A stretch of DNA of 64,000 nucleotides from Desulfobulbaceae bacterium (GCA_020444175.1 JAHLLM010000027.1:3910-67909); one strand, 5' to 3'; numbered from the stretch's first letter, positions 36,554 through 57,507 are shown. The notes: generated by a model from the letters alone, not told the origin. Translations and numbers: made by a program.

Positions 36554-36580
36554 TATTTCTATTATCGTATTTCGTGCCTG

Positions 36581-37177: not shown

Positions 37178-37939
37178 CTACACGGTTCTGTTCCAACTCT
37201 GTCCTGCTTTAAAAAAGTCCTTCAAGGTAACCAGACCGTTTTTTTGCAATGTTTTCACAAGAAAAAGAAAAAGATAGGCGGTCTGCAGGGCGTCCTGTAA
37301 TGCATCATGGGCCGGAAACAATGGCAGGTCATATTCCTTGCACAGATCGGTCAGATTATAAGATACCTGGAGATTAAGTTGATCGTGATACCTGCCCCAT
37401 ACTTTTTCTCTATAGATTTGTGCTAACCGCAGGGTGTCAAGGCAGGGAGTTTTGATTGTTGATCCAAAATGGATTTTGGCTGCATTATTGATAAATCGTG
37501 TATCCAGATCGATGTAGTGTCCCACAAGAAACGAAGAACCGCAAAAATCAAGCAACCCAGGCAGAACATCCTGTATAGGCGGTGCAGTGTATAGCTCCTG
37601 GGGAGTGATTTGATGAATTAAAGTTGCGTCAGTGACATTTATTTTTCCTGGCCTAACCAGGGTGTAAAAAGTATGTCCTGCCATAATCTGTAAATTTTTA
37701 ACCAGTACAGCACCAACTGAAACGATCTCATCTTTTTGTTTGTTCATTCCAGTAAGTTCTGTATCAAGGACCACATAATCATATTCTTCGATGGGCATGT
37801 TCTGATCAATGGATTTAAAATAGGTGTGGTTTCGGACAAAAGCAGGATGAGTCGGTGGCTTATTTTTAAAAAACCGTAACAGATTAAGCACCTGTGCACC
37901 CCATGAAGATTTCGGTCTGCCCTTCTGCCTTATGTCCAC
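37178..37939 (-). CDS. DEDDh 3'-5' exonuclease (DnaQ / Pol III epsilon-like)
   Basis: ExoI VVLDTELTG, ExoII VGHYIDLDTRF, ExoIII HDALQDAL. Starts 17 bp after the oleD stop. Confidence 0.8.
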   Translation of the reverse strand: MDIRQKGRPKSSWGAQVLNLLRFFKNKPPTHPAFVRNHTYFKSIDQNMPIEEYDYVVLDTELTGMNKQKDEIVSVGAVLVKNLQIMAGHTFYTLVRPGKINVTDATLIHQITPQELYTAPPIQDVLPGLLDFCGSSFLVGHYIDLDTRFINNAAKIHFGSTIKTPCLDTLRLAQIYREKVWGRYHDQLNLQVSYNLTDLCKEYDLPLFPAHDALQDALQTAYLFLFLVKTLQKNGLVTLKDFFKAGQSWNRTV

Positions 37940-37956: not shown

Positions 37957-38970
37957 TCACACAAATCCATTCTCCTTCAACCAGAGAACCATCCTCTCCA
38001 TACCTTCTGCTGTTGAAACCTGAGGCACGTAACCAAAATCCACCCTGGCTTTGTCTATTGAAAACCAGTGGGATTTTGCCAGCTGTTCTGCCAGGAATCT
38101 CGTCATGGGTGGTTCATTCTGATTCCTGGTAAGCAAATAAAATTTTTCAATAAGTGCACCAAGTACATACGCCTTTTGAAATCCAACCCGTTTCGAAACA
38201 AGAGGAAGCCTGAGTCGGGAAAAAAGATCATTAATCCAGTTCCAGAGATTAACCGGTTCACCCTGGGAAATAAAATAGGCCTGCCCTGCAGCACTTGCGG
38301 TTTTTTCCAAATTTTCCGCAGCAAGCAGATGAGCCATGGCTACATTATCAATATATGAAATATCGACAATGTTTTCAGCTGTGCCGACGATTTTTAATTG
38401 TCTTTTTTTGCCACGCTCAACCAATCGGGGAATAAGGTTGGTGTCTCCTGGTCCCCAGACAAGATGGGGCCTCAAGGCCGTTGTAAGGAGACCTTCTGAA
38501 TTTGCCGAGAGGATCTTTTTTTCTGCTATAACCTTGGTTTTAGCATAATGACAGAGAAAATTCTCTGCATAGGGAACAGATTCATCCACTCCTTCAAGAT
38601 CATGATTCCTGAAAACAACACTCGGAGTGCTTGTGTACACCAGATTCCGGATCCCATTGTCCCGGCATGCCTGAAGAACATTTTCCGATCCTTGAACATT
38701 GATTGAATAGTAATCCTTGAAACTGCCCCAGATACCTGCCTTGGCTGCCACATGGAAAACAGCATCATGCTCCCGGAATGCTGACGACAAAAAATCAGCG
38801 TTCCGTATATCCCCGCAGATAACCGTTGCACCCATCCTGATCACATCAGGATAGGTATTGCGCCCAATTACCGTTGTCTCAATTCCACGGGCAAGCAGGA
38901 GTTTCACTATGGCCTTACCGACAAAACCTCCCCCCCCTGTGACGACTACTTTTTTCATTCTGCCAACCAA
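37957..38970 (-). CDS. oleD: OleD-like NAD(P)H-dependent 2-alkyl-3-ketoalkanoate reductase (3-beta-HSD / extended SDR family)
   Basis: VTGGGGFVGKAI Rossmann motif and YAKTK catalytic YxxxK. Last gene of the oleBCD-type run. Confidence 0.72.
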   Translation of the reverse strand: MVGRMKKVVVTGGGGFVGKAIVKLLLARGIETTVIGRNTYPDVIRMGATVICGDIRNADFLSSAFREHDAVFHVAAKAGIWGSFKDYYSINVQGSENVLQACRDNGIRNLVYTSTPSVVFRNHDLEGVDESVPYAENFLCHYAKTKVIAEKKILSANSEGLLTTALRPHLVWGPGDTNLIPRLVERGKKRQLKIVGTAENIVDISYIDNVAMAHLLAAENLEKTASAAGQAYFISQGEPVNLWNWINDLFSRLRLPLVSKRVGFQKAYVLGALIEKFYLLTRNQNEPPMTRFLAEQLAKSHWFSIDKARVDFGYVPQVSTAEGMERMVLWLKENGFV

Positions 38971-39086: not shown

Positions 39087-40763
39087 TCAATAAATTCCCT
39101 GTTGTTCGGTAGCCCACACAGCAAGCTTTTCCCTGAAAATTTTAGCATTATGGCGTATATCTACAGGAAACGAAGGATGTATGAGAAACTTGGTAATTTT
39201 TTTTGTCAAAGGATTTGCCTGGGCAAGTTCTGCCAGTTCTTTAAAAAAGATTTTCTCATCTTCAATAGAATCATACGGTTCTACTATGAGAACTGGCTCC
39301 TGCCGGCCTGCCGGACCAACGCCTACCAGTGCGGACCTGAAAACTTTTGGATGCTCATTAAATATTGCCTCACAGCATATGGTATAGAGTATCTCCTGCT
39401 CGGTTATAACACGATGGGCCTTTCTACCGCAAAACCACAATCGTCCCTGTTCATCAAAGTATCCCATATCGCCCATTCGGTGCCAGAATTTCTCACCGTC
39501 ACCTATTTTGGCGAGCCGATTCTCCGTTTCATTATTATCATAGGCCCGTGTGACCACATCACCTGTAACAATAATCTCCCCTATTTCATTTGCACCAAGA
39601 AAAAAAGCATCCCCTATGTGCTGCACAGGCCCTTCGACTGACTTTATTATTTTTATGATTATTCCGGGAAGAGGTCTTCCCACACAAGTTCCGGCCCCTT
39701 TACGGGTCAGATCCCATGTTTCCGATACGACTTCACTGCCTGTTATAGAGGCTATAGGAAGAGATTCAGTTGCGCCATAGGGAGTAAACACTTCACCGTC
39801 CGGGGCCATGATTTTTTTAACGCGTTCAATAAGCTCGCCTGAAACCGGCGCACCGGCCATGAGAACTTTGTTTACCCCCAACCTGATATTTTCTTTCAGA
39901 CAATAGCGGCTGACAACATTCCAGATGGCCGGTGACCCAAAGGAATAAGTGACGTGATGAGCCTGTATCGAGGCTATAAATTTCTCCGGATCAACTTGGG
40001 CGGGCCGAGTGGGATCCATGTCAGGGATGACTGCACAGGCCCCTAACGCGGTTGAAAAAAGAGCAAAAAGAGGAAAGGCCGGCTGATCTCGATCATAGGC
40101 CGTTATTCGGTAATAATTTCGAATATGCTGCAGTTGAGCATAAAAAATTCCGTGAGTGTACTGTACTCCCTTTGGAGGCCCCGTGCTTCCCGTAGTGAAT
40201 ATTACTGCAGCCAGTTCATCTCTGCCGGAATTCACCATTGAAAAATCATCGTCAGCGCGAGCGGCAAGTCGTTTAATGGATCGCACAAAAGGCAAAGATA
40301 CAGAGCTGACGCAAAACGATAACTTGATACTCTTAAAAGGCTTTCTGAAAATATTTCTAAAAACATAGGCTTTTGGGATGCCGATAAACACCTGGGGTTT
40401 GACTGAGGCAATACAGCGCAGGAGATTTTTGTACCCCATGCCCGGATCGATGAGAATTACCACGGCACCCATCTGAAAAAGAGCAAAAGTAAGACTGACA
40501 AAATCAAGAGACGGTCTCACCATCAGAATGACCCGGTCGCCCTGCCGAACTCCCCCGGCAACCAAGGCGTTGGCATACCGTCTTGATTTTTCGGATAACT
40601 CCCCAAATGACCACTGCTCCCCCCCTTTCTTCGAAGGGGCAATTAAAGCAACGCGATCAGGAAAATGAGCTGCGGCAGATGCCAATGTTTTTGCTATATT
40701 GTAGGAAGTAGCCAATGGACTGTAAGAAAGTTTTGTTGGTAATGCGCCCGCCCCTGAATGCAA
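39087..40763 (-). CDS. oleC: OleC-like beta-lactone synthetase (AMP-dependent synthetase/ligase family)
   Basis: AMP-binding motifs FTTGSTGPPKGV, YGATE and GDMGYFDEQGRLWFCGRK. Sits between the OleB-like and OleD-like genes. Confidence 0.75.
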   Translation of the reverse strand: MHSGAGALPTKLSYSPLATSYNIAKTLASAAAHFPDRVALIAPSKKGGEQWSFGELSEKSRRYANALVAGGVRQGDRVILMVRPSLDFVSLTFALFQMGAVVILIDPGMGYKNLLRCIASVKPQVFIGIPKAYVFRNIFRKPFKSIKLSFCVSSVSLPFVRSIKRLAARADDDFSMVNSGRDELAAVIFTTGSTGPPKGVQYTHGIFYAQLQHIRNYYRITAYDRDQPAFPLFALFSTALGACAVIPDMDPTRPAQVDPEKFIASIQAHHVTYSFGSPAIWNVVSRYCLKENIRLGVNKVLMAGAPVSGELIERVKKIMAPDGEVFTPYGATESLPIASITGSEVVSETWDLTRKGAGTCVGRPLPGIIIKIIKSVEGPVQHIGDAFFLGANEIGEIIVTGDVVTRAYDNNETENRLAKIGDGEKFWHRMGDMGYFDEQGRLWFCGRKAHRVITEQEILYTICCEAIFNEHPKVFRSALVGVGPAGRQEPVLIVEPYDSIEDEKIFFKELAELAQANPLTKKITKFLIHPSFPVDIRHNAKIFREKLAVWATEQQGIY

Positions 40764-40908: not shown

Positions 40909-41787
40909 CTAATCCGCTCCATTTTTGGCCAAAAAATTCTCAACAAGCGGGCCGATACTGTCAAAGGCGTCCTCAAGCACATAATGACCAGCATTTTTAA
41001 AGTAGTGGCATTCTGCCTGCGGAAACCTCTTCTGCCACTCCTTATAAAATGCATCATGAAAACAAAAATCCTTCCCGCCCCAGGAAATGAGCATTGGTGT
41101 CTTGGTAAACAATCGTAAACCTTTGTCGATCTCATCGATAGTCCGCCAGGAAGCATCTTTCTCTGTTAAAGGGATATCCTGCACAAATCGCAAGGTGGCA
41201 ATTCTATTTTTCCATGAATTATAGGGAAACAGGTAGCCACGGGCAATTTCTTTTGTCATTTTCCTGGTCACAGCCATATGCACGGCAGCACCGGCAAAGG
41301 CATTCAATCCCTGAATCAAAAGAGGTCCGAGAAAAGGAGTCCTGCATATTTTTATACGCCAGGGAATGCTAGTGGAGTGAAAAGCTGCGGTATTCAGGAT
41401 AACAAGGGATTGAATGGCAACCGGATTCCGTACGGCGTACCCCATACCGATCGCTCCACCCCAGTCATGGACGACGAGAGAACATCTACCTATCTGCAGG
41501 TGATCAAGAAGGCTTTGCAGGTTATCAATATGGTCTTTAAGCCGGTAGGGATACCCTTGAGGTTTGTCAGAAAGACCGCAACCAAGATGATCCGGAACTA
41601 TGACTCGATAGGAACGTTTAAGGAGATTTGCCAGGTTTCGGTAATAAAATGACCAGGATGGATTCCCATGAAGCATTACAACGACAGGGCCCTTGCCAAC
41701 ATCAATATAGGACATTTTGCCATCAGGCAACTGATAAGAAGAGGGAGTAAAAGGATACTCCGAAAGATAATCAGAACTTTCAGTCAT
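40909..41787 (-). CDS. oleB: OleB-like beta-lactone decarboxylase (alpha/beta hydrolase, haloalkane-dehalogenase-like)
   Basis: HGNPSWSFYYRN and the nucleophile-Asp motif VVHDWGG. ATG at 41787 (MTESSD) is preferred over the upstream TTG at 41814. Confidence 0.75.
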   Translation of the reverse strand: MTESSDYLSEYPFTPSSYQLPDGKMSYIDVGKGPVVVMLHGNPSWSFYYRNLANLLKRSYRVIVPDHLGCGLSDKPQGYPYRLKDHIDNLQSLLDHLQIGRCSLVVHDWGGAIGMGYAVRNPVAIQSLVILNTAAFHSTSIPWRIKICRTPFLGPLLIQGLNAFAGAAVHMAVTRKMTKEIARGYLFPYNSWKNRIATLRFVQDIPLTEKDASWRTIDEIDKGLRLFTKTPMLISWGGKDFCFHDAFYKEWQKRFPQAECHYFKNAGHYVLEDAFDSIGPLVENFLAKNGAD

Positions 41788-41858
41788 CCTGTTTAAACCC
41801 TTATTTCGGAACAACAGCTAAAAAGCGTGCATGTTGCAAGTTGGATTGCTGCTTCACG

Positions 41859-42473: not shown

Positions 42474-42693
42474 GGTGGCTCCTTTTGTAAGAAGTGAGAG
42501 AATTTCTTATTAGAAGTTATAGAATATAAAGAAGTTATAGAATTTAAACAAATATTAAATGAACCATATCTGTATAATTTTTACAAGCTGCCGCAATATT
42601 CCTTGCATTACCAAATATCAAAAAAAGAAATAAAAAACCATGCTTTCCGTTCTATATTCTCTAACTTCTTTAACTCCTCCATTAACTCCTGCA

Positions 42694-43728
42694 TTACCAT
42701 TCCACCCCCAGCATCAGACAGTTTATACCACTGCCGATACCAAGCAAGGCCGCTTTCTCTCCAGACTTAAAAATTCGCCGTTCGAGCCCGATTGCCATGG
42801 TAAGAGGAGCAGATACAGAGCCGACATTACCCCAAAAAGGTAAAGTTGCAAAATTTTTTCCCTCATCAAGTTGTAAAGTTTCAAAAAGTAGGCGGGCATG
42901 AGCCCGACCAACCTGATGACAGAAAAAATGGTCAATATCTTTTTGGTGCCAGGCAAGTTCATCCTGAAAATCACGCCATGTCAGAGCTGCAGTTTCAACA
43001 CCTCTCTTCAGCAGTTCCTCGGAATCTGTTGCCATTAAAATACCTTTGGAAGTGTCCTGAGCCCCCTGACAAAGATTGTTGTAACCTGTATTGGTTCTGA
43101 CAGCTCCGCCTTTCAGGCAGTGGCCTGTATCATGTTCTTTTTTACTTCCCATGACCATGGCAACTGCGCCTGAACCGATTGTAAAAGAGGCAAAACTCGA
43201 TTTAACGGATTTCCTGGTCAATGATTCGTCGCTGAGCAGGTGCTGAATAGTAGACTCAACAAGACTCTCAGCGGTCTCACCGGCCACGACCAGCCCTTTT
43301 TTCAACTGACCCAGTTCAATCATGTTTGCCAGCATGACCATACCGTTTAAAAAACCGAGACAGGCATTGGAAAGATCAAATATCTGGCACTTTTCCGGCA
43401 ACCCCAAATGTCGATGCACAAAAGATGCAGTAGCCGGCTCCATCATATCTCGGGAAACAGAAGTAAATATCAGGCAGCCTATCTCATCAGGAGAAACACC
43501 GGCTGCCTCAAGGGCTTTTTTACCGGCACGGGCGGCGCCTTCACTTGGTTTCGTGCCGTCCAGCCAAAAACGGCGGGCATGAATACCGCTCATTAATTCA
43601 AGTCTCCCCTCGGGGAGCTTTAAGCGTTCATAAACAGGGGCAAGACGCTCTTCGAGTTCTGCAGAAGTAAGCACATGGGGCGGAGCTTCGTAGGCCGGAG
43701 GATAGAGGCAGACTTGGGAATAAAGCAT
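42694..43728 (-). CDS. oleA: OleA-like thiolase (FabH-like head-to-head Claisen condensing enzyme)
   Basis: Thiolase fold with active-site Cys in FDLSNACLGFLNG, SRDMMEPATA, and late H/N motifs (FFCHQVG, WGNVGSVS). 344 aa. Co-linear with oleB, oleC and oleD. Confidence 0.72.
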   Translation of the reverse strand: MLYSQVCLYPPAYEAPPHVLTSAELEERLAPVYERLKLPEGRLELMSGIHARRFWLDGTKPSEGAARAGKKALEAAGVSPDEIGCLIFTSVSRDMMEPATASFVHRHLGLPEKCQIFDLSNACLGFLNGMVMLANMIELGQLKKGLVVAGETAESLVESTIQHLLSDESLTRKSVKSSFASFTIGSGAVAMVMGSKKEHDTGHCLKGGAVRTNTGYNNLCQGAQDTSKGILMATDSEELLKRGVETAALTWRDFQDELAWHQKDIDHFFCHQVGRAHARLLFETLQLDEGKNFATLPFWGNVGSVSAPLTMAIGLERRIFKSGEKAALLGIGSGINCLMLGVEW

Positions 43729-44702: not shown

Positions 44703-45144
44703 GTTTTAAGGCGCAGGCAAAGCCGACTTTAACAGCAGTTTTATTTCTGACAAGAACCTGACCACTCAGAAACCAGGCTGGACCCACCTGCTCTTTTAGT
44801 CTGACCTTCAAGGTTATCGTATCGCCTGGTCTTACCTCGCGTTTGAATTTTGCTCCTGTTATACGGGTTAAAACAGGAACTCCGGTTATTGCCGCATCAT
44901 CATTTTTATTTTCTTTGCGAATCAGCTCGGAGATAAGAAGAGACCCAGCCTGGAATACAGCTTCACAGAGGATAACTCCCGGCATTATGGGATAATGGGG
45001 GTAATGGCCTTTAAATAGTTCAAGATCTTCTGAAATGGATTTCTGGGCAATAATAGTGTCATTCTCCAGTTGGATAACCTCATCAACCCAAAGAAAGGGA
45101 GGGCGGTGGGGGATTCTTTCTAAAATAAATTCTTTAGAGTCCAC
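44695..45144 (-). CDS. 3-hydroxyacyl-ACP dehydratase, FabZ/FabA-like hotdog fold
   Basis: GHYPHYPIMPGVILCEAVFQ matches the FabZ HFP..PVMPGVL..EA active-site block. 149 aa. Overlaps the FabG-like stop by 11 bp. Confidence 0.82.
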   Translation of the reverse strand: MDSKEFILERIPHRPPFLWVDEVIQLENDTIIAQKSISEDLELFKGHYPHYPIMPGVILCEAVFQAGSLLISELIRKENKNDDAAITGVPVLTRITGAKFKREVRPGDTITLKVRLKEQVGPAWFLSGQVLVRNKTAVKVGFACALKQD

Positions 45145-45874
45145 CGTTCACCTCCAGAACCGACCCGGTTATATAAGCAGCATGTGATCCGGCAAGAAAC
45201 AGAACCGCATCAGCTACCTCCTCAGGAGTCCCAAAACGCCGCATGGGAACCATTTTTTTATATTCTTTAACCTGCTCCTTGGTTAAATCGTTAATCAGTT
45301 CAGTGGCGATAAATCCGGGAGATACGCAGTTAACAGTAATTTTCCGTTTGGCGGTTTCTTTGGAAAGCGACTTCATCATTCCAACCTGCCCTGCCTTGGA
45401 GGCTGCATAATTGGCCTGCCCGGCAAAACCGAGATGAGCCATGGGAGAGGTAATGAAAATAATACGCCCATATTTCTGTTTTACCATGAGCTGAACGGCA
45501 AATTTGGACATAGTATAGGAACCGGTAAGATTAATATCTATAACCCTGTTCCAATCTTCTTGAGGCATCATGGCCAGTACGCCGTCACGTCTTATTCCGG
45601 CGTTGTTTACCAGGATATCGATGGTTTCGTGCTCCTCTTCAATTTCCTGATACAATTTTTCCACAGCCTCATAGTCACTCACATCACATTGGTGGAGCTG
45701 CAATCGTTCACCATGTTGATCCACATCCTTTCTGAACTGCTCCGCGGCATCACGATTGCCACCATAAATACCAATGACAAAAGCACCCTGATCAAGAAAG
45801 GCTGAAGCAATAGCCCTGCCCAGACCACGAGTAGCTCCGGTAACGATAACTTTTTGGTTGGTAAAATCAGACAT
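45134..45874 (-). CDS. 3-oxoacyl-ACP reductase, FabG-like SDR
   Basis: VTGATRGLGRAI, NNAG and YAASKAG (YxxxK). ATG at 45874 (MSDFTNQ) is preferred over the upstream GTG at 45904. Confidence 0.85.
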   Translation of the reverse strand: MSDFTNQKVIVTGATRGLGRAIASAFLDQGAFVIGIYGGNRDAAEQFRKDVDQHGERLQLHQCDVSDYEAVEKLYQEIEEEHETIDILVNNAGIRRDGVLAMMPQEDWNRVIDINLTGSYTMSKFAVQLMVKQKYGRIIFITSPMAHLGFAGQANYAASKAGQVGMMKSLSKETAKRKITVNCVSPGFIATELINDLTKEQVKEYKKMVPMRRFGTPEEVADAVLFLAGSHAAYITGSVLEVNGGL

Positions 45875-46139
45875 AGTAATTCTGTCACTGAATCCACGGA
45901 ACACACGGAAATTTTATTGTATCATTCTTTTTACCGTAGCTTGTGGATATGTAAAATTTATCAGCTGACCAACGTGCATCTCCCTTGCAGGGAGATACTT
46001 TAGAAGTTGTGCTTCGATTGATTTAGAAATATTCTATAACTTCAGTAACTTCTCTTTATTCTTTTAACGTCTTTAACTCCTCGAAATCCTCGTCTTTCTG
46101 CATTCTTCAGTGAATTCCAGAGGGTACGCAGCTGAAAAT

Positions 46140-47549
46140 TCAACTCCGCAAATACGCATCAGCATCGTTGGCAACAATAACACCATAGTTTATGGCCCCA
46201 AGCCAGCCGGACATAATAATGCCTACCGATCCTACATGAAAAAGCCCTGGGACAACTTTAAAAATATTCCTTGAAATATCGAGCCCAGGAAATTTTGTAC
46301 CAAAAGAGGTCCCTTTGGTATGCAATGTATACCTGTTGAATGTTTTGGGTGTTGCGGCTTCCAGCCAATCACATTTTTGACGGATATCCGGAATATACCG
46401 TTCAAGATCATTCAGAGAACGTTCAATCATATCCTGCTTTGCCTTCTCGTAGTCTTCATCGGATAACCCGGCCCAATCATCGTAATTACTGTTCATTGAG
46501 GCTACCACTGTATAGTCGGGGTGATCCGGACGTGTTTCAGGATAATAGACAGAGAAAGTCCTGCTCTTTGTATTGAAATCTCGCATCTCAGCGGCATCGA
46601 AACTCTCGGCAGTGGAAGTAAAAAGTAAGTCACCGACCTCGGGGAAAGATTCTCCCTGCCTTATGCCCATATAGACCTGACAGCTTGAATTATTAATCTG
46701 AACTTTGTCAAACTCTCCAAGAAAATCATCAGGAAACACTTCCCGTCCGGCAAGATTATCAACTGTATTTGTTATTCCACTGTTTGAAATAACGCATGGT
46801 GCGGAGATAACCCTCTCCCCCACCGCAACGCCCTTAACCTTCCCTTTTTCGATGATGACATGGTCAACTTTGGCCTTGGTGCTGATGGTCACACCGTTAG
46901 CCAACAGCTCATCACTCATCATACCTATCAACTTATCGGTTCCGCCCCTGAATGTAAAGACACCCTTATTCATAAAATTTGAAAAAACAATGCCATACGT
47001 GATGGCCGGATCATCAAGGGTGGAGCCATTGGCGTATGAAATAGGCTCCATGAGGAGACGATGCACATCCGTGCGCCCGGGAAAAAACTTTTCAAAAAGC
47101 TCCCTCGTGGTCATGGATTGATCGTCATAAAAATTCATTTTACGAACCGTTGTAAAAAAATCATCTATAACGGCTGAAGGTATTCCAAATTTGGAATTGA
47201 GAATCTGTGTAAAATCGACTTTATCAAAGGTTGTTTTCAGGGAAAACTGGGGATTGTCGAAAACAATATTTTTAAGCTGGACAATTGAGTTTTTTATGGA
47301 CTCATTCCAATATTTTCGGCAGGTCTTGACCATTCCGTATGGGAAACCATGCAGGGAAACATCAAAGGTGTGGCCTTTGCGCTTAAACCATGTTGCCAGT
47401 CCACCAAGCCTATGATGATGTTCAAGGAGCAAAACACGGTGACCGGCGCGAGCTAATCGATTTGAAACAGTTAGCCCGCCAAGGCCTGAACCTATAACGA
47501 TAACATCGTAGCTGGAGTCGATTTTGTCTATTGGAGTATAGCTATTCAT
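46140..47549 (-). CDS. FAD-dependent oxidoreductase, phytoene desaturase (CrtI) / RetSat-like family, copy 1
   Basis: N-terminal dinucleotide fold DVIVIGSGLGGLTVSNRLARAGHRVLLLEHHHRLGG. 469 aa, typical CrtI-family length. Confidence 0.75.
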   Translation of the reverse strand: MNSYTPIDKIDSSYDVIVIGSGLGGLTVSNRLARAGHRVLLLEHHHRLGGLATWFKRKGHTFDVSLHGFPYGMVKTCRKYWNESIKNSIVQLKNIVFDNPQFSLKTTFDKVDFTQILNSKFGIPSAVIDDFFTTVRKMNFYDDQSMTTRELFEKFFPGRTDVHRLLMEPISYANGSTLDDPAITYGIVFSNFMNKGVFTFRGGTDKLIGMMSDELLANGVTISTKAKVDHVIIEKGKVKGVAVGERVISAPCVISNSGITNTVDNLAGREVFPDDFLGEFDKVQINNSSCQVYMGIRQGESFPEVGDLLFTSTAESFDAAEMRDFNTKSRTFSVYYPETRPDHPDYTVVASMNSNYDDWAGLSDEDYEKAKQDMIERSLNDLERYIPDIRQKCDWLEAATPKTFNRYTLHTKGTSFGTKFPGLDISRNIFKVVPGLFHVGSVGIIMSGWLGAINYGVIVANDADAYLRS

Positions 47550-47593
47550 ATTTTATATTGAAGTTACAAATATAATTTATATATCAAGTAGTT

Positions 47594-47938
47594 AGAGAAG
47601 TTAGAGGAGTTAGAGAAAAAAGAAATCTTAATCTTAATTGGAAGAAATTGCTTTTGCGTATCCATTCAGTTATTTGTAGGTTGGGTTAATTTCCAATAAC
47701 CTCTGTTCTTGTTGGGTTATAGGTCTTTCAACTTTTTTACTTATTGCTTGCTACCGAAAACCCAACAATTCTGGTAGCATGAAACGAATTTAACCCAACC
47801 TACAATGGAATAACTCATGCGCCTTTTGCCATACAATCAAATCCTCAAATGATTTTGCCGGTGCAGTCACGTAACCAAATTCTCTCCATTCTTTAACTTC
47901 TCTTACTTCTTTTACCTCTTTTCCTTCTCTAACTTCTG
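47594..47938. repeat. nested inverted-repeat region between the two CrtI-like genes
   Basis: Outer arms AGAGAAGTTAGAGGAGTTAGAG (47594..) versus CTCTAACTTCT (about 47928..47938). Inner perfect 15-bp arms TGTAGGTTGGGTTAA (47676..) / TTAACCCAACCTACA (about 47790..). Innermost arms TTGTTGGGTT / AACCCAACAA and GCTACC / GGTAGC. Confidence 0.8.
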
Positions 47939-49315
47939 CCCCATCAATACATGCTGATTCACCATGCTGACACCGCTCAACATGGAACCGACTATTCCGA
48001 GAAATCCCTGGTCAGTACCAGCAATGAATAGGTTTTTAAAAGGAGTTTTTCCATCCTTGATCTTGAAAGAGCTACCGTAAACCGCTCCCTCTGCCTTACC
48101 TGTAAATTTTTCGATGGTAACAGGAGTAAAGCTGTCCTCATATACAATGTTTTGTCGATAATTCCCAATGATTTTACTGGTAATATCCTTTGATTTCTCT
48201 CCCCAATCCTGTTTCATCAGCTTATATTCAGCGGGAGAGGCATTTTTCCAGAGTTCATAATTTGCTGAATTGGTGACACGAACTTGAAAATGTTCCCCAG
48301 GTGGCAGCCCCTGGAAATTTTCAGGAAAGCAGATAACCCCCCAATCCGGGTCAACCGGTTCCTTTGGCCGACAATAATGCAAGGAATTTTTTTCAGAATA
48401 AAAAATGATAGTATGATCGGAAAGTATTTTTCCCCTTTCATGGTGAGGAAGAAGGTAAATGGATTCAACAAAACTCATTTTTCCTGAAAATTTGTCTTTC
48501 TCATGGGGCAGGGCAACCAGGTCCCAGGTTCCAGGAGCCCCTATGGTTGAAATAATATTTTCACAACCAATTGTTTCACCTGTTGAGAGGGTAACGCCGG
48601 TTATGACCTGGTCCTTTTTTTCAACTGATACAACCTGACTTTTATAACGTATTTCTCCCCCAAATGATTTGAATTTATCTACCAGCAAATCCAGAAATTC
48701 CTTCATGGTGCCATGGGGACGAAAAAAACCTTCCTTAAAAATTGACCTGAACATGATAACGAACTGACCAAAATCCATATCATGTTCGTCACTGTTCCCG
48801 TATACCATGAGTGGCAAAAGCAACATGTCTATGAGGAGTGGATCACGTAGATACTCTGCGATTTTTTTCCTTGTTGAAATCCAGGGACCAGGAGAAAATG
48901 CGTCAAAGTCATTGATAACTTGCTGTAACTTATCAAATCCATCAATTTCGGAAGGGAAAGAAGAAGCGATTTCTTCCCGCAGCAAATTAAAATCATTTGA
49001 AAAACAAAGGCTATGATCAGGAAAATGGATCAGGGAAGATCGTTGTTCATGGGTTTCAAACTTTTTTCGCGAAAGCTTTATCTGGCGGAAAAGACGATTG
49101 AGAGGCGCATGTTTGTCCGTTGGATCCGCAAAGTTGGTCATGGCGTGAAGACCTGTCTCAAACAAAAAGCCTTTGCGAAAATAATAGGAATTCAACCCAC
49201 CGGGAATTACATGCTTTTCAAGAATGAGGACAGAACCGCCGAAACGGGCAAAACGAATACCGGCGGCAAGCCCGGACAGGCCGCCGCCGATGATGATTAA
49301 AGAATATTCAGACAA
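47912..49315 (-). CDS. FAD-dependent oxidoreductase, phytoene desaturase (CrtI) / RetSat-like family, copy 2
   Basis: LIIIGGGLSGLAAGIRFARFGGSVLILEKHVIPGG. 467 aa. TTG start 6 bp after the ACP stop. Confidence 0.72.
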   Translation of the reverse strand: MSEYSLIIIGGGLSGLAAGIRFARFGGSVLILEKHVIPGGLNSYYFRKGFLFETGLHAMTNFADPTDKHAPLNRLFRQIKLSRKKFETHEQRSSLIHFPDHSLCFSNDFNLLREEIASSFPSEIDGFDKLQQVINDFDAFSPGPWISTRKKIAEYLRDPLLIDMLLLPLMVYGNSDEHDMDFGQFVIMFRSIFKEGFFRPHGTMKEFLDLLVDKFKSFGGEIRYKSQVVSVEKKDQVITGVTLSTGETIGCENIISTIGAPGTWDLVALPHEKDKFSGKMSFVESIYLLPHHERGKILSDHTIIFYSEKNSLHYCRPKEPVDPDWGVICFPENFQGLPPGEHFQVRVTNSANYELWKNASPAEYKLMKQDWGEKSKDITSKIIGNYRQNIVYEDSFTPVTIEKFTGKAEGAVYGSSFKIKDGKTPFKNLFIAGTDQGFLGIVGSMLSGVSMVNQHVLMGQKLEKEKR

Positions 49316-51569: not shown

Positions 51570-52055
51570 ATGGCCGATATAATAGAAAAAGAAATTGAAG
51601 GGCTCCTGATTAACGGACAAAACAAAAAGGAAATTTGGAGAAAATATAAAAACCACGAAGAGCAACATAAGGCGCTCTTTTATTTGAACAATCTTTCAAA
51701 TCCGACTGATCGAAAAAAATTTCTTTTATTGAATTTAATCCTTGTGATCTTCCTTACCTTTATTACTGCAAAAAAACTGCTTACCGCACTTTCATTCGGC
51801 TCTGTGGATCTCTATCTTTTTCTCGGGCTGGTTGTTCCCACCATCAATATTTACGTATTACGTGAAATCCTCAAATTTCACAAGACAGGCTATAAATTTC
51901 TCTTCATCCTGTCAATTCTTTCTCTTGTGCAGCCGGAAAATCATCATATCCAGGAACTTTTCATCCTGACAGTAATGATTGTTCTCTCGGGTTTTCTCCA
52001 CCAGAAAATGTTCCCGGCAAAAGACGCGATCAATGCCAACGGGAAGTCGGCGTAG
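51570..52055 (+). CDS. hypothetical membrane protein
   Basis: 161-aa ORF with about 4 hydrophobic segments. No recognisable motif. Confidence 0.45.
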   Translation: MADIIEKEIEGLLINGQNKKEIWRKYKNHEEQHKALFYLNNLSNPTDRKKFLLLNLILVIFLTFITAKKLLTALSFGSVDLYLFLGLVVPTINIYVLREILKFHKTGYKFLFILSILSLVQPENHHIQELFILTVMIVLSGFLHQKMFPAKDAINANGKSA

Positions 52056-52075: not shown

Positions 52076-53992
52076 TTATGACGCCTTGCCGGCAATAACC
52101 CTCAATGCAACCGGTTCTTCACTTTTTACAACAGAATCACTGAGATGCAATCCCTGATATTCGGGCACAACTTCTCTCAGATGCTTGATAAGCAGTTTCA
52201 CATCCCGACTGGTGGCAGCCTTATTTAAATCGTCCAGAACATGGGTCAGCCAATCCCAGTCACATTTCCGCGTGCTGGCCAACTGCAGCTTGGGATGGGT
52301 CGTTCCCTGCAGATTCTCATTTTCGTGGAAAATCTCCTCAAAGAGTTTCTCCCCGGGGCGCAGCCCGGTGTACACAACTTTAATATCTACATCAGGCACA
52401 AAACCGGACAGACGGATCATCTCTTCTGCCAGATCCTTTATAAGCACCGGCTCTCCCATGTCCAGCACAAAAATCCCCCCCCCCTGCTCCTTGCCCATTG
52501 AGCCGGCTTGCAAAATAAGGCTGACTGCCTCGGGAATGGTCATAAAATAACGCTTTATTTCACGATGGGTAACAGTGACCGGCCCCCCTGCCTTAATCTG
52601 TTTTTCAAAAAGCGGAACAACAGACCCGGCGGACCCCAGCACATTACCGAAACGCGTTGTTATAAAATTTGTTTCTGAGCGGGAATTGAGATTCTGACAA
52701 TATATTTCGGCAATACGTTTTGTTGTTCCCATGACATTTGTCGGATTAACAGCCTTATCCGTTGAAACCAGAACAAAACGATCTACGTGATAGCGGTCAG
52801 CGGCATCGGCAACAACCTGGGTGCCCTGGACATTATTCTGCACACCTTCGGCAGGGTTCAACTCCAGCATGGGCACATGCTTATATGCTGCAGCATGAAA
52901 GACAACCTCAGGAGCAAACTTTTTGAAAACCCAGTCAACCCGTTCACTGTTTTTCACATCGCCAAGAACGGTAACAACCTTGGCATCGGGAAATGAGCTG
53001 CGTATTTCCGTATCAATTTCATAAAGATTAAATTCTCCATGATCAAAGATAACGAGTTGAGATGGTTCCAATTCGGCAACCTGCCGGCACAGTTCCGAAC
53101 CGATTGATCCCCCTCCACCGGTGATAAGCACGGATTTTCCCTTTAAAAAACCGGCAATGCCGTGGTGATCAATTTCAACCGCCTCCCGACCAAGCAAATC
53201 TTTTAAGGTAAGTGGTCGGAGTTGCGCTGCTTCAACCTGATTTCCTGACAATTCATGAATCGAAGGCAGCGTTTTGCATTTTACGCCCGATTTAACGCAT
53301 TGAGCAATCACCCTTTTCACCGTCTCCCGTGAAGCAGAAGGGATAGCAAGCAAAACGAGATCAATTTCAAGCAGCCTGACTATATCGGGAATATCACCCA
53401 GTGATCCATAGACACGAACCCCGAGAATATCACGGTTATGTTTCTTCCTGTCATCATCAACCAGGGCAAGGGGGAGATACTCCTGCCGGTGTATCAAATC
53501 CCGAAGCAGCAGTTCACCGGCATGTCCGGCACCGGCAATAAGAGTTCGAACCCCTTCTTTTTTCCGCAGCCTTAAGGCATGATCCTTAAACCAGCGATAA
53601 CACAAACGGGGATATGATAACCCGACTACAAGGAGAAGCGGGGCAAGCAGCAAGACTGAACGGGGTACCCCTTCCATACGAAAAAAAACCATGCCGGCCA
53701 AAGTGACGGTTAAAGAACCTAAAGTGACGGATTTAACAATGCGAATCAAATCAGGAAGAGAAGCAAATCGCCAGATCCCCCTATATAATCCAAAAAACCA
53801 GAACATGGCCCCATACACAGGTAAAGAGAGACAGGTAAGCTTTATAAAGCCGATAAAGAAAGGAGGTGGTATTTCCTGCAGATTATAGCGGAGCCAATAA
53901 GCGGTAAGTAAACCTAGTGGAACCCAGAATAAATCGTGAGCAAAGGCAGCCCATCTGTTAAAAAGTATTCTTCTTAAATAGTGTTTTAACAA
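52076..53992 (-). CDS. membrane-anchored nucleotide-sugar 4,6-dehydratase, CapD/WbpM/PglF family
   Basis: 4 N-terminal TM segments, two Rossmann regions (IAGAGHAG; ITGGGGSIGSEL). 638 aa. Confidence 0.88.
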   Translation of the reverse strand: MLKHYLRRILFNRWAAFAHDLFWVPLGLLTAYWLRYNLQEIPPPFFIGFIKLTCLSLPVYGAMFWFFGLYRGIWRFASLPDLIRIVKSVTLGSLTVTLAGMVFFRMEGVPRSVLLLAPLLLVVGLSYPRLCYRWFKDHALRLRKKEGVRTLIAGAGHAGELLLRDLIHRQEYLPLALVDDDRKKHNRDILGVRVYGSLGDIPDIVRLLEIDLVLLAIPSASRETVKRVIAQCVKSGVKCKTLPSIHELSGNQVEAAQLRPLTLKDLLGREAVEIDHHGIAGFLKGKSVLITGGGGSIGSELCRQVAELEPSQLVIFDHGEFNLYEIDTEIRSSFPDAKVVTVLGDVKNSERVDWVFKKFAPEVVFHAAAYKHVPMLELNPAEGVQNNVQGTQVVADAADRYHVDRFVLVSTDKAVNPTNVMGTTKRIAEIYCQNLNSRSETNFITTRFGNVLGSAGSVVPLFEKQIKAGGPVTVTHREIKRYFMTIPEAVSLILQAGSMGKEQGGGIFVLDMGEPVLIKDLAEEMIRLSGFVPDVDIKVVYTGLRPGEKLFEEIFHENENLQGTTHPKLQLASTRKCDWDWLTHVLDDLNKAATSRDVKLLIKHLREVVPEYQGLHLSDSVVKSEEPVALRVIAGKAS

Positions 53993-54191
53993 TGAAAATC
54001 CCTTTAAATACAGAATTTGCTAAACTCTCATTTATGCCCCTTGAGATTTATAAATCCTGCAAGTTTCTCTTAGCCTGTAACACCTACAAGTTTCAGATGT
54101 ATCGAAGTTATATTACCTATCAGCGTCCTTGAGGGATAAAAACCATCAAAATTTATAGATTGCATGGCAATATTTATTTAACTTATACACG

Positions 54192-55205
54192 TTATCTGTC
54201 AGGATTTCCATCAGCTCTCACTTTCAACCATAATATAATGAGGGTGAGATATGCACTTAGCGCAAACCAATAGCCATATTCCGGCAACAATGAAGCCCCA
54301 ACAGCCAACGGGAACAACAATAATAAATTAATACAAACAACTCCCAGGGTAACTTTCAAATGAGAGCCATATTTTCGCGATAAAACCTGATACGCATGAC
54401 TTCGATGGGCTTCGTAAAACCGCTCGCCTTTCCAAATTCTATACGCAAGTGTCATAGTTGCATCAACAAAAAAAACCCCAAGGAGTATCATCCAACTCCA
54501 AAAAATGATAACTCCACGTGAGGCGGTATAAAAAGCAAAAATGGCCAAAACATAACCAAGAAAACCACTGCCGCCGTCACCCATAAAGATCATGGCAGGC
54601 GGCCAGTTCCAGATGAGAAATCCGAAACATGCACCGGACAAAGCCATAAGAAGAACAACTTCACCGCCTCCGCCCTTCAAATAAATAATTAATGCCGCTC
54701 CACCAGCTACAAAAATGGCCTCTGAGGATGCGATACCGTCAATCCCGTCCATAAAATTAAAAAGATTCAACATCCAGACGGCTAAAATCATTCCTGCACT
54801 TTTCCAGATCAGTTCCGGCAGCACGAAATTATCGAAAAAATTTAAGGAAAAATCCCCCAGCAAGGTAAATGCCCAGGATGCAGCTGCAAAATGAATCAAA
54901 AGTCTCCATCTGGCCTTCACCGGTTTATGGTCATCCCAGAATCCGACAAGAGCCACAATCAGCCCTCCAACAAAAAGTGCCAGAAAAAAATGCTGTTCAA
55001 CCTGATTCAAAAAGCACGCTGCGGCGAAAAAACCGAGAAAAACAATAACAATGGCGGCTCCACCTCCACGAGGAGTGGGCACAACATGAGAACTTCTCTG
55101 GTTAGGGAAATCCAGCATGTTTTTCCGTAAAGCGTATGAACGAATCATTGCCGTAAACATTAACGAAAACGTCAATGTTCCTATAAAAATCAAAAGCGGA
55201 TACAT
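54192..55205 (-). CDS. undecaprenyl-phosphate HexNAc-1-phosphate transferase (GT4 / MraY-WecA-WbpL family)
   Basis: Polytopic, NLFNFMDGIDGIAS motif. ATG at 55205 (MYPLLIF) is preferred; the ORF track start at 55259 would overlap the upstream gene. Confidence 0.85.
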   Translation of the reverse strand: MYPLLIFIGTLTFSLMFTAMIRSYALRKNMLDFPNQRSSHVVPTPRGGGAAIVIVFLGFFAAACFLNQVEQHFFLALFVGGLIVALVGFWDDHKPVKARWRLLIHFAAASWAFTLLGDFSLNFFDNFVLPELIWKSAGMILAVWMLNLFNFMDGIDGIASSEAIFVAGGAALIIYLKGGGGEVVLLMALSGACFGFLIWNWPPAMIFMGDGGSGFLGYVLAIFAFYTASRGVIIFWSWMILLGVFFVDATMTLAYRIWKGERFYEAHRSHAYQVLSRKYGSHLKVTLGVVCINLLLLFPLAVGASLLPEYGYWFALSAYLTLIILWLKVRADGNPDR

Positions 55206-55224
55206 TTTTTGCTTATAACGTCCT

Positions 55225-56145
55225 TCACAAAATTTTAGGGGCCTTAGGCTTCCAGCCAAGTACTTCTTCTGTCATACACGTATCTACCTGAAGAGAATCA
55301 CAGAGCCTGTTCATAAAGTCCTTTTTGTTGCATAAACAAGCTGCGATACGAAGAAGGCTGACAGGAAAGGGAAACAGGCGTACTTTAACCCCCGCACCAA
55401 GGGCAAGAAAACGAATAATGTCCGCTGTAGTAATTGGGTGACCATCAGACACAAGAAACACTTGGCCAGGAGCTCTTGGATGATCCAGACAAACAGCAAT
55501 TAGGTCACATAAATTCTCAATGCTGACTAAATCTCGTTTATTTTTTATTGAACCAAGAGGAAGCGGAATTCCTTTTTTAATTATCTCCAGTAACCTGCGG
55601 ATATTCCCTTTAGCTCCTTTCCCGTAGATTAATGGAGGTCTGATGACAACAATTTCAATTTTTTTCCCCGAGCCAATTTCAAGAAGACCCTTTTCCGCCG
55701 CGAGCTTCGATTCAGCGTAAGCTCCTTCAGGAGAAGGAAAATCACAAGCAGAAAAAGGAACGGATGTGGTCTTTTCACCGTTAACCTTAATTGTGCTGAG
55801 AAAAACAAACCGTTTCACCCCAGCTTCTGCAGCTTGCCGAGCAAGTTTTAGGGGAGCATCTACATTAATGGACTTGTAAATTTCAGTCAGGTGCTCACCC
55901 TTTTCATTCAGCTGGTGAACACGTCCCGCAAGGTGAACTACGGAGTCGCAGCCGGGCAAAACATCTTCTATTTCACTTCCATCTTCAATAGAAAAATTAA
56001 TGCATTTAATCCATGACGGCAGAGATGCATGCCGGCAACTCCTACTCGTACCCAGAATGTCCCTTCCCTGCTTATGGAGATAGCGTGCCAGGTGACGTCC
56101 GACAAATCCGCTGACACCAGTAATTAAAATTCTCTTATTTTGCAT
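55225..56145 (-). CDS. NAD-dependent nucleotide-sugar epimerase/dehydratase
   Basis: ILITGVSGFVGRHL and YAESK (YxxxK). Position matches the epimerase-WbpL-WbpM arrangement of O-antigen clusters. Confidence 0.85.
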   Translation of the reverse strand: MQNKRILITGVSGFVGRHLARYLHKQGRDILGTSRSCRHASLPSWIKCINFSIEDGSEIEDVLPGCDSVVHLAGRVHQLNEKGEHLTEIYKSINVDAPLKLARQAAEAGVKRFVFLSTIKVNGEKTTSVPFSACDFPSPEGAYAESKLAAEKGLLEIGSGKKIEIVVIRPPLIYGKGAKGNIRRLLEIIKKGIPLPLGSIKNKRDLVSIENLCDLIAVCLDHPRAPGQVFLVSDGHPITTADIIRFLALGAGVKVRLFPFPVSLLRIAACLCNKKDFMNRLCDSLQVDTCMTEEVLGWKPKAPKIL

Positions 56146-56164
56146 AGCTTCAAATAAGTTTAAG

Positions 56165-57283
56165 TTAGCTTAAAACAGAACGGTACACATCGTTATACTC
56201 TTTTCCCATCCGTGGAGCAGAAAACATCTTCTCAAATCTCCTTCTGGATTCTTGCCCCATCTTCTGGGTCAATTCATCATCTGCCGCCAGATCTTGCATG
56301 GCTCTCCGAAGTGCCTTGCTGTCTTTAGGAGGAATGACAATTCCTGTCACACCGTCTTTATTCACATAGCTTGTTCCTGTACCAATATCCGTCGATATCA
56401 ACGGACGTCCTGCCATGGCACCTTCAAGAAGGGTAACGCCAAAAGCTTCTGTTCTTAGATGGGAAGGAAAAACCACGGCTTTGCAAAGTTTCAGCAAAGC
56501 CATCTTGTCCTCATCAACAAGAAACCCGCAAAAAACAATATTTTTTAACCCACGCTCCTTTACTTTTTTCAATAAATCCGACTCCATAGGACCTTTTCCT
56601 ACAATTACAATCGTGCCCGTAAATCCAACAGCAGCTTCAAGAAGAACATCCAACCCTTTGTAGTATCTGAGAACCCCGATAAAAAGAAAAAAACCGTCAC
56701 CAACCTTATGCTGCCAATACCGAATTCGATCCAGACTTACTGAAGGGTAGCCTTCTTCACCGATACATATGGGGATAACTTCTGACTTTTGTTTATAAGG
56801 AGACAAATCCCTGCTTGATTCAAGGTAATTTGGTGAAGTTGCTATTATTTTTTTCATTGAACCGAGGAATTTATCCATTAAAGGCTTATAAAACCACTTC
56901 ATTTTTTTTTGTCGGAGGATATCGCTGTGATAGGTGACAATTGAAGGTTTTGCCTGGGCAAAACAAAGGTGAAGCATATCCGCAAAAGGCCAGGGGAAAT
57001 GATAGTGCAGTATATCAAATTCCTTTATCATTTGAGGAAAGTGCCTGAAAAGAGATAAACTCAAGGGAGAAGATGCAATATCGAGGGAAATGGGGTACTG
57101 CATAACGCGAGCTTCCTGTCGTTCAATAACTCTCAAACCGTTGCGACTTAAGGAAACGACGGTATTCTCAATATTATAGTCATGGGTCTGCCTGCAAATC
57201 TGTTCTATAACCCTTTCTAGTCCACCGAAAGTGTCAGGAAAGTAGGTCTTGTATATGTGGCATACTTTTATTATATCAGACAT
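56165..57283 (-). CDS. glycosyltransferase family 1 (GT-B)
   Basis: C-terminal EX7E-type block PSHLRTEAFGVTLLEGAMAGRPLIS. Confidence 0.85.
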   Translation of the reverse strand: MSDIIKVCHIYKTYFPDTFGGLERVIEQICRQTHDYNIENTVVSLSRNGLRVIERQEARVMQYPISLDIASSPLSLSLFRHFPQMIKEFDILHYHFPWPFADMLHLCFAQAKPSIVTYHSDILRQKKMKWFYKPLMDKFLGSMKKIIATSPNYLESSRDLSPYKQKSEVIPICIGEEGYPSVSLDRIRYWQHKVGDGFFLFIGVLRYYKGLDVLLEAAVGFTGTIVIVGKGPMESDLLKKVKERGLKNIVFCGFLVDEDKMALLKLCKAVVFPSHLRTEAFGVTLLEGAMAGRPLISTDIGTGTSYVNKDGVTGIVIPPKDSKALRRAMQDLAADDELTQKMGQESRRRFEKMFSAPRMGKEYNDVYRSVLS

Positions 57284-57507
57284 GTTCCATGGTTATTCAT
57301 TTTCAAAAAAGGGTAAAACCAGAAGAAGTTGTTCAAAAATCTACAATGCTTCCCGTCTGCGCTCAAAAAGTCAACAACCTACATTGGCTCCATCGGGAGT
57401 TAATTGGTTTTGCTCACTTAAGGCCGACAAACATTACAGTTTGGGTGTCACATATACCACACAGAACGTTTTTTTCATGCAAATATAATATATTGTAATT
57501 GCCTCAC

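Follow-up and report, generated by a model that had tools for sequence, protein, structure and literature searches.

The 64-kb window analysed here, a stretch of 64,000 nucleotides from a Desulfobulbaceae bacterium (GCA_020444175.1 JAHLLM010000027.1:3910-67909), carries on its minus strand two open reading frames (ORFs) for flavin adenine dinucleotide (FAD) enzymes of predicted CrtI fold, termed A and B below, which fill positions 46140-49315. They stand within a run of fatty-acid synthase genes. Upstream lie the genes for a β-ketoacyl-acyl carrier protein synthase (KAS) of the KAS II type and for a dedicated acyl carrier protein (ACP), and downstream those for FabG-, FabZ- and FabI-type enzymes (Table 1); the set from KAS to FabI is called the cassette below. 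This arrangement agrees with the original prediction made from the DNA sequence, which had placed the pair between an ACP and FabG, FabZ and FabI. Beyond that prediction, the cluster runs on into oleA, a response-regulator gene, oleB, oleC and oleD (42694 down to 37957). All four oleABCD genes are present and co-directional with the cassette, in the order oleA-(response regulator)-oleBCD, and oleA starts 6 nt past the FabI stop codon.

Table 1. Features of the cluster, listed from high to low coordinates
Feature	Coordinates	Strand	Remarks
Cassette KAS, FabF-like elongating β-ketoacyl-ACP synthase, 413 aa	49880-51121	-	Pfam ketoacyl-synt N and C
Dedicated ACP, 83 aa	49322-49573	-	DLDSMD serine motif; Pfam PP-binding
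Flavoenzyme B, 467 aa, predicted CrtI fold	47912-49315	-	TTG start, 6 nt past ACP stop
Repeat-bearing insert between B and A	47550-47937		Inverted 9-nt tandem arrays and inner 20-nt inverted repeat; outside the conserved cassette
Flavoenzyme A, 469 aa, predicted CrtI fold	46140-47549	-	ATG start
FabG-type 3-oxoacyl-ACP reductase	45134-45904	-	11-nt overlap with FabZ
FabZ-type 3-hydroxyacyl-ACP dehydratase, 149 aa	44695-45144	-	Pfam FabA-like
FabI-type enoyl-ACP reductase, 267 aa	43735-44538	-	Pfam adh_short_C2
OleA, head-to-head condensing thiolase	42694-43728	-	PRK09258 443.9 bits, above the 285 cut-off
Response-regulator receiver protein, 204 aa	41859-42473	-	Pfam Response_reg
OleB, alpha/beta hydrolase, haloalkane-dehalogenase-like	40909-41814	-	Pfam Abhydrolase_1; PRK03592 164.3 bits, below the 241 cut-off
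OleC, olefin beta-lactone synthetase-like AMP ligase	39087-40763	-	PRK09274 678.4 bits, above the 478 cut-off
OleD, 3-beta-HSD/epimerase-family reductase	37957-38970	-	Pfam 3Beta_HSD 192.5 bits; syntenic with oleABC in related loci

Each cassette protein is single-domain in Pfam, and no FabA-like isomerase is encoded in the cassette. The Cys-His-His motifs of the KAS are readable in its translation, while its score with the NCBIfam fabF model (313.8 bits) falls below the cut-off of 493.75, marking it as a divergent FabF. Several of its partners are likewise at or beyond the edge of the curated NCBIfam models: none of the ACP models reaches its cut-off on the ACP, all FabI models stay under theirs on FabI, FabZ scores 109.1 bits with the FabZ model (cut-off 113), and FabG lies below TIGR01830 (293.1 bits, cut-off 297.75) and above PRK12826.1-2 (262.6 bits, cut-off 222). 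OleC scores 534.5 and 525.7 bits with two OlefBLtnSyn models, under their species-specific cut-offs of 850 and 900.

Both flavoenzymes open with the FAD motif GxGxxG...LE.....GG, which reads VIGSGLGGL...LLEHHHRLGG in A and IIGGGLSGL...ILEKHVIPGG in B. The classical N-terminal FAD dinucleotide fold, first read in the translations, is backed by Pfam, where both proteins match Amino_oxidase and NAD_binding_8 (the latter at 2.4e-13 and 2.2e-9). A and B align over their full length with 23% identity (E 2e-18) and both copies occur across several phyla, which makes the A/B duplication ancient and upholds the earlier view of old paralogs rather than a recent duplication. Their AlphaFold2 models have predicted local distance difference test (pLDDT) values of 87.3 for A and 90.5 for B, and a predicted template modelling (pTM) score of 0.89 each. 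The best neighbours of both in the PDB, found with Foldseek, are the gamma-carotenoid desaturase 4rep (TM score 0.74 for A and 0.73 for B), the Methanosarcina oxidoreductase 3ka7 and the Pantoea CrtI 4dgk. On these models A and B have the CrtI-type three-domain fold, as the membership of the CrtI superfamily claimed at the outset would have it. A search of PDB sequences with A and B returned N-terminal Rossmann matches only and was uninformative past the fold family.

Within the superfamily the pair stands apart. The carotenoid isomerase model carot_isom (TIGR02730, CrtISO/CrtH) scores 106.4 bits on A and 90.4 on B against a cut-off of 586.9, crtI_fam (TIGR02734) 82.7 and 56.8 bits against 238.1, and the HpnE model 32 and 25.6 bits against 283. 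Because A and B lie under every curated CrtI, CrtISO and CrtD cut-off, they appear to form a subfamily of their own outside the characterised CrtI, CrtISO and CrtD families. The carotenoid isomerase model is the top NCBIfam model for both, ahead of crtI_fam, and its ranking is a weak hint of an isomerase role.

Could A and B be ordinary isoprenoid enzymes, that is, carotenoid, squalene or hopanoid desaturases that stand beside fatty-acid genes by chance? Homologs do carry the public names 'phytoene dehydrogenase' and 'phytoene desaturase family protein', and the fold is that of CrtI. However, the curated models (crtI_fam, carot_isom and HpnE) are missed widely, and the neighbours in 82 related loci are fatty-acid synthase genes, a synteny that holds across phyla. 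Among window ORFs of at least 200 aa, Pfam gave zero matches to SQS/PSY, polyprenyl synthase or lycopene cyclase, so that the predicted lack of carotenoid genes in the window holds for ORFs of that size. Furthermore, anammox homologs that are more CrtI-like failed to complement crtI (PMC4790861). An isoprenoid role is highly improbable.

The cassette across phyla

Relatives of A were surveyed with one genome per GTDB species and occur in at least 579 species genomes. Synteny was counted in the best 80 of these at least 579 genomes, with twelve window proteins mapped onto the 80 loci by tblastn and only loci with enough flanking DNA taken as assessable. Among the best 80, A is 68-78% identical in Desulfobulbales and 59-64% identical in Dehalococcoidia/Chloroflexota, Nitrospinota, Phycisphaerae/Planctomycetota and Muiribacteriota. 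The nearest homologs are in metagenome-assembled genomes of Desulfobulbaceae/Desulfobulbales (75-87% identity for A and 58-77% for B), which places the window in an uncultured relative of the sulfate-reducing Desulfobulbales. A is the most conserved protein of the cassette. Further searching adds A in Bdellovibrionota (Halobacteriovorax, Bacteriovorax), Planctomycetaceae (Rubinisphaera) and Smithella. The A orthogroup is compact, since an exhaustive search of 1.84 billion representative proteins gave just 162 clusters at E ≤1e-30, mostly fragments.

The conserved unit is the KAS-ACP-B-A-FabG-FabZ(-FabI) cassette and not the ole cluster. B lies immediately upstream of A in 60 of 64 assessable loci, KAS is upstream in 48 of 54, and ACP (56/62; 56-91% identical across phyla), FabG (65/73) and FabZ (63/68) accompany A with similar regularity. 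The gene order KAS-ACP-B-A-FabG-FabZ is invariant and is kept in about 90% of assessable loci, across hosts that include Desulfobulbales, Chloroflexota/Dehalococcoidia, Nitrospinota, Phycisphaerae/Planctomycetota and Muiribacteriota. FabI is the variable member: 22 of the 24 loci from other phyla have it inside the cassette, against 14 of the 43 Desulfobulbales-like loci. That the cassette is a discrete unit follows from its unrelated flanks, since in a Nitrospinaceae locus (L060) all seven genes stand between unrelated housekeeping genes and in Desulfocapsa (L023) the six cassette genes are followed by tol-pal genes. In one Chloroflexota locus (L052, 5773-14054) an OleA-like KAS III precedes the cassette and a 4'-phosphopantetheinyl transferase (PPTase) follows FabI, which suggests a complete stand-alone synthase. 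By its gene content, the cassette is an accessory type II fatty-acid synthase, complete in itself, to which two flavoenzymes have been added.

An OleA-like KAS III, 47-51% identical to the window OleA, lies directly before the cassette KAS in seven Chloroflexota/Dehalococcoidia loci in all, with no oleBCD nearby. Two of these, L054 and L055, hold a second KAS copy, and L054 also a second OleA-like copy.

The host range bears on oxygen. Nitrospinota and Bdellovibrionota are aerobes. With such groups among the hosts, the system is better described as oxygen-independent than as anaerobe-specific, and the original placing of this chemistry 'in anaerobes' was overstated.

A direct tie between A and the dehydratase comes from gene fusions. 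In each of the proteins P0244 (625 aa) and P0399 (644 aa), a complete A-type flavoenzyme continues in frame into a C-terminal FabA/FabZ-like domain. They are only 45% identical to each other, so a sequencing artefact is unlikely, and the fused domain of P0244 is 38% identical to the window FabZ (E 8e-37). P0399 (L081, 10001-11935) lies in a cluster of the order KAS-ACP-B-(620-aa protein without Pfam match)-A::FabZ-short-chain dehydrogenase/reductase-OleA-OleB, whose B is 43% identical to that of the window. Through the fusions A is linked in function to the dehydratase reaction of an ACP-dependent cycle, and A and B are CrtI-fold enzymes recruited into an ACP-dependent synthase. As side observations, an OleD-like epimerase gene lies divergently upstream of the L081 cluster, and the notion that L073 and L081 share one unknown 620-aa protein beside A was dropped, the two proteins not being homologous.

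A dehydratase fusion also suits a reductase, the next enzyme of the normal cycle. One or both flavoenzymes might then be saturases of the RetSat kind, which would reduce a specific double bond as alternative enoyl- or dienoyl-ACP reductases of the accessory synthase. Several close homologs carry the Joint Genome Institute (JGI) name all-trans-retinol 13,14-reductase, and most Desulfobulbales-like cassettes are without FabI. On the other hand, FabI is present in this window and in nearly all cassettes from other phyla, where an extra reductase would be redundant, and a single reductase role poorly explains two conserved, divergent paralogs. A fully reducing synthase would also leave the polyunsaturated hydrocarbons of Desulfotalea psychrophila unexplained (PMC2649909). 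A saturase role is unlikely.

How constant is the olefin pathway as a partner? OleABCD follows the cassette directly in nine listed Desulfobulbaceae loci, and 21 of 40 Desulfobulbales-like loci have oleB, oleC or oleD within 10 kb, while none of the three was found within that distance in any of 17 assessable loci from other phyla. On these counts the claim that ole genes always accompany the cassette was abandoned. The olefin pathway is one lineage-specific consumer rather than a conserved partner, and an olefin is not the conserved substrate.

The same counts bear on whether A and B might work after assembly, tailoring a finished olefin, a ketone or the acyl chain of a phospholipid. In its favour, members of the CrtI family usually sit at the membrane periphery and work on free lipids, and A occurs as an orphan outside any cassette in three loci (see below). 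Rhodobacter sphaeroides UfaD, moreover, acts on phospholipid-bound chains (PMC7380195). Against it stand the 6 nt between the ACP stop codon and the start of B, the position of the pair between ACP and FabG/FabZ in about 90% of loci, the fusion of A to FabZ, which works only on ACP thioesters, and the 17 of 17 loci from other phyla that lack nearby ole genes. Post-assembly tailoring is quite unlikely. Of the two substrates first suggested for the pair, acyl-ACP is supported by the conserved gene order and the fusions, whereas the final olefin is not, given its missing pathway in the other phyla.

Chemistry proposed for the pair

What, then, would two CrtI-like flavoenzymes do within a fatty-acid synthase? 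In the explanation favoured here, A and B would act on ACP-bound intermediates during chain building and, without using O2, would introduce or place the double bonds of an unsaturated acyl chain. The chain would probably be a methylene-interrupted polyunsaturated C16. In this genome it would pass straight to the adjoining OleABCD, which would join two chains head to head to give a C31 polyene like the C31:8 and C31:9 of D. psychrophila; by mass balance, C31:9 would correspond to two 16:4 chains minus CO2 plus a new central double bond. For the whole explanation, paired acyl-ACP double-bond enzymes with a C16 product feeding OleABCD, we estimate a probability of roughly 0.5. The narrower claim, that A and B determine the double bonds of ACP-bound intermediates in the accessory synthase, is likely.

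In the favoured version, both enzymes would take trans-2-enoyl-ACP from the cassette FabZ and isomerise it with the help of flavin, one shifting the bond (2-trans to 3-cis) and the other flipping it (2-trans to 2-cis). Building 16:4(n-3) by two-carbon elongation would need both isomerisations, twice each, with the cis-3 shift at the C6 and C12 stages, the cis-2 flip at C8 and C14 and full reduction otherwise; FabI would reduce the remaining cycles. Chemistry of this kind would be closer to that of CrtISO than to that of CrtI. Flavins abstract only activated or allylic hydrogens, and allylic dehydrogenation leads to conjugated, not skipped, double bonds. Redox-neutral double-bond isomerisation by flavin occurs within the CrtI superfamily, for example in CrtISO, and the FAD-dependent linoleate isomerase of Cutibacterium acnes is another example. 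Isomerisation is modestly preferred to desaturation because of the conjugated products expected of flavin dehydrogenation, the A::FabZ fusions, the lack of an electron-transfer partner and the preference for the carot_isom model. Taken by itself, the isomerase version is a possibility at somewhat less than even odds.

Alternatively, A and B may be true CrtI-like desaturases, as in the model of Rattray et al. (2009), dehydrogenating unsaturated ACP-bound chains, adding bonds singly and passing the electrons to a quinone or another acceptor rather than to O2. CrtI and the gamma-carotenoid desaturase 4rep are indeed the closest solved folds, and synteny and fusions fit this model as well as the isomerase model. 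It is a published hypothesis for the D. psychrophila proteins DP2405, DP2406 and DP1860 (PMC2649909), and precedents exist in UfaD, whose NAD/FAD-binding domain resembles phytoene dehydrogenases and which desaturates a fatty-acyl chain (PMC7380195), and in FabX, a flavin acyl-ACP dehydrogenase/isomerase (PMC8626469). However, such desaturases would be expected to make conjugated dienes (10t,12t in the case of UfaD) and not the skipped, all-cis pattern of the known C31:9, and UfaD is proposed to require O2 (PMC7380195). The cassettes examined encode no electron-acceptor partner, and the fusion to FabZ points to a 2-enoyl intermediate that already contains a double bond. Desaturation is a serious but doubtful alternative.

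Returning to paired double-bond enzymes acting on acyl-ACP, several points weigh against that explanation. What is observed is the fold, the paralogy and pairing, the synteny, the fusions and the adjacency to ole genes; from these we infer substrate, product and chemistry. Isomerases are preferred to desaturases on grounds of chemical reasoning, of a gene fusion and of a sub-threshold ranking of hidden Markov models, and the finding that no cassette examined contains a gene for an electron donor or acceptor fits either enzyme. The missing ole genes in the 17 loci from other phyla mean that, outside Desulfobulbales, the conserved product may be an unsaturated membrane fatty acid rather than an olefin precursor. 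In Rubinisphaera italica (L082, 10001-11428), in a planctomycetotal metagenome-assembled genome (L073) and in Candidatus Electronema sp. TJ (L008), A has no B, ACP, KAS, FabG or FabZ within 10 kb; there A either has its partners elsewhere in the genome or acts alone. The link to D. psychrophila has its own weak points. Its hydrocarbons were reported by mass only, without double-bond positions (PMC2649909), and the orthology of A and B to DP2405/DP2406 is likely rather than certain, being read from adjacent locus tags and from the cassette in Desulforhopalus and Desulfopila. Finally, we found no biochemical test in the literature of the 2009 hypothesis, of A or B, or of their close homologs.

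As for rejected claims, the statement that the pair always stands in a cassette was dropped on account of the three orphans and of a further locus (L077) with no B, ACP or KAS upstream of A.

Since 2009 it has been an open question by what means strict anaerobes that lack a Pfa synthase produce C31:8 and C31:9 polyenes, and the question is tied to the unsolved biosynthesis of ladderanes. A and B are the best candidates for the oxygen-free step behind the polyunsaturated C31 hydrocarbons of sulfate reducers. The locus makes the question testable, with seven small genes in fixed order and culturable strains (Desulforhopalus vacuolatus, Desulfopila and D. psychrophila). Flavin-dependent enoyl-ACP isomerases or desaturases would represent a new activity in the CrtI superfamily and a new, modular, O2-free route to polyunsaturated chains. 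They would bear on lipid biochemistry, on polyunsaturated fatty acids and polyenes as biomarkers of anoxic settings and on the engineering of polyunsaturated products in hosts with type II fatty-acid synthases.

Two routes to polyunsaturated acyl chains are known, the O2-dependent di-iron desaturases and the Pfa megasynthases. More tentatively, the cassette could represent a third, independent route, based on CrtI-fold enoyl-ACP 2,3- and cis/trans-isomerases and spread horizontally through at least six phyla. Were this so, polyunsaturated fatty acids and polyenes would be made far more widely, and under anoxia, than the interpretation of lipid biomarkers assumes, since the hosts include the abundant marine and sediment groups Nitrospinota, Dehalococcoidia, Desulfobulbales, Planctomycetota and Bdellovibrionota.

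The repeat insert and neighbouring genes

A local peculiarity, missed by the original prediction, is the spacer between B and A, which is 362 bp long, whereas the median over 72 other loci is 29 bp, and which looks like a small inserted repeat element. Its arrays consist of AGTTAGAGA in three copies at 47590-47617 and TTCTTTTAC in five copies at 47889-47937. The latter array reaches into the 3' end of B and encodes extra C-terminal residues, so that the last seven or so residues of B come from the insert. The inner 20-nt inverted repeat (47674-47693 / 47786-47805) has no other copy in the window. A 26-aa ORF in the gap (47790-47870) has no Pfam match; it may resemble the N-terminus of a 23S intervening sequence (IVS) four-helix-bundle protein.

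More intergenic tandem arrays, of 9-nt or 18-28-nt units and often in opposed pairs, lie at 42512-42548, 42657-42679, 46030-46082 and 20419-20544. Those in the gap between oleA and the response-regulator gene are AGAAGTTAT... and TTCTCTAAC, and GTTTGATTGG... with AACCAATAG stands ahead of the gene at 20548. Together the intergenic arrays may belong to a genome-wide family of repeat elements. No Rfam family matched between 37 and 52.5 kb at E values up to 0.1, so the long intergenic gaps hold no known RNA, and a scan of 45.8-51.5 kb for promoters and terminators gave counts equal to chance.

The response regulator is found between oleA and oleB only in this genome, being absent from that position in six related loci, and has the look of an insertion particular to this lineage, one that might control olefin synthesis. 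It has a coiled-coil-like tail. In every related Desulfobulbaceae locus with the complete ole set, oleB comes directly after oleA.

The ole genes and a gene for an RNase T-like exonuclease (37178-37939) are closely followed downstream by two tandem sodium:solute symporter genes (582 and 588 aa) at 32487-36859, with a small DUF4212 gene before the second. Such an arrangement is typical of acetate/monocarboxylate permease pairs. Directly upstream of the cassette (52076-58650) is a set of the polysaccharide/O-antigen type, comprising a CapD-like Polysacc_synt_2 dehydratase, a 355-aa multi-pass membrane protein, an epimerase and two group-1 glycosyltransferases. Between this set and the KAS gene, a predicted membrane protein without Pfam match is encoded on the plus strand (51570-52055).

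Comparison with known systems

The closest published counterpart is in D. psychrophila. Rattray et al. (2009) described phytoene-dehydrogenase-like pfam01593 genes in clusters resembling type II fatty-acid synthases (FASII), namely DP1860, DP2405 and DP2406 in that species and Kuste3336 and Kuste3607 in the anammox bacterium Kuenenia, both genomes being without Pfa or polyketide synthase (PKS) genes (PMC2649909). In D. psychrophila, which makes C31:8 and C31:9 hydrocarbons, the unsaturated fatty acids and the polyenes draw on a common 13C-depleted pool that differs from the pool of the saturated acids (PMC2649909), which fits a separate synthase. Like DP2405/DP2406, A and B are an adjacent pfam01593 flavoprotein pair in a FASII-like cluster of a Desulfobulbales sulfate reducer, with the same proposed function, the anaerobic introduction of double bonds. 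The 2009 study predates OleABCD and assumed decarboxylation of C32 acids (PMC2649909), whereas here the cassette is physically joined to oleABCD. FabI, outside the displayed clusters in D. psychrophila (PMC2649909), is inside the cluster in the window. The cassette is also carried by Desulforhopalus and Desulfopila (L045 and L029). We take both genera to be close relatives of Desulfotalea. Literature searches on DP2405/DP2406, and on the cassette in combination with ole genes, brought up no relevant paper other than Rattray et al. (2009).

The anammox proteins Kuste3336 and Kuste3607 are likewise CrtI-like flavoproteins of an anaerobe, encoded in clusters with ACP, FabF and FabZ and proposed to be acyl-ACP desaturases. 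They do not replace CrtI in a lycopene assay, and the same study found no other activity for them (Javidpour et al., 2016; PMC4790861), and their role is still called unknown in a 2023 paper and a 2026 review. With the sequences of Table S6 of Javidpour et al. and the first ~400 residues as BLASTP queries, the two are 34% identical to each other (E 4e-53) and 23-26% identical to A and B (E 1e-12 to 4e-22), the same range as to Pantoea CrtI (23-26%). Being no closer to A and B than to CrtI, they were rejected as orthologs of the pair, and results obtained with them are not simply transferable to it. Differently from the cassette, moreover, the Kuste clusters hold radical SAM genes.

With CrtI, CrtISO, CrtD and RetSat the pair shares the N-terminal FAD motif, a glycine-rich C-terminal motif, similar length and the three-domain fold, and that family, which acts on long-chain hydrophobic substrates, spans desaturases, isomerases and saturases. 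Unlike these enzymes, A and B show only 13-18% identity in structural alignments, lack a carotenoid context, are embedded in a cassette and, in some lineages, are fused to FabZ in the case of A.

A functional parallel is found in Shewanella, where OleABCD makes a C31:9 polyene from the product of a dedicated polyunsaturated-chain synthase (PMC6463001). As in that combination of Pfa and OleABCD, the supply of polyunsaturated chains would be O2-independent and a dedicated synthase would feed OleA. Pfa, however, is a multidomain PKS-like megasynthase in which double bonds come from FabA-like dehydratase domains, whereas the cassette encodes separate type II enzymes, among them a single FabZ and two flavoenzymes; the window KAS scores 92.2 bits with omega_3_PfaA, far from the cut-off of 1010.1.

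Two flavin enzymes offer biochemical precedents. FabX of Helicobacter pylori acts on acyl-ACP as a dehydrogenase/isomerase (PMC8626469), and like the activity proposed for A and B its chemistry forms or shifts double bonds. FabX differs in being a flavin mononucleotide (FMN)/[4Fe-4S] enzyme of another fold and in making a monounsaturated chain. UfaD, related to phytoene dehydrogenases, also performs flavin double-bond chemistry on a fatty-acyl chain, but its substrate is a phospholipid chain and its product a conjugated diene seen only in aerobically grown cells (PMC7380195). Neither FabX nor UfaD is paired or part of a dedicated synthase cassette.

With these precedents and the hypothesis of 2009, the chemistry can no longer be called undescribed, as the original prediction had it; the core idea is not new and restates a hypothesis already in print. 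Added to it here are the linkage to oleABCD, the recognition of a discrete unit shared across phyla, the fusion of A to FabZ, the PPTase in one lineage and the non-orthology of A and B to the anammox proteins.

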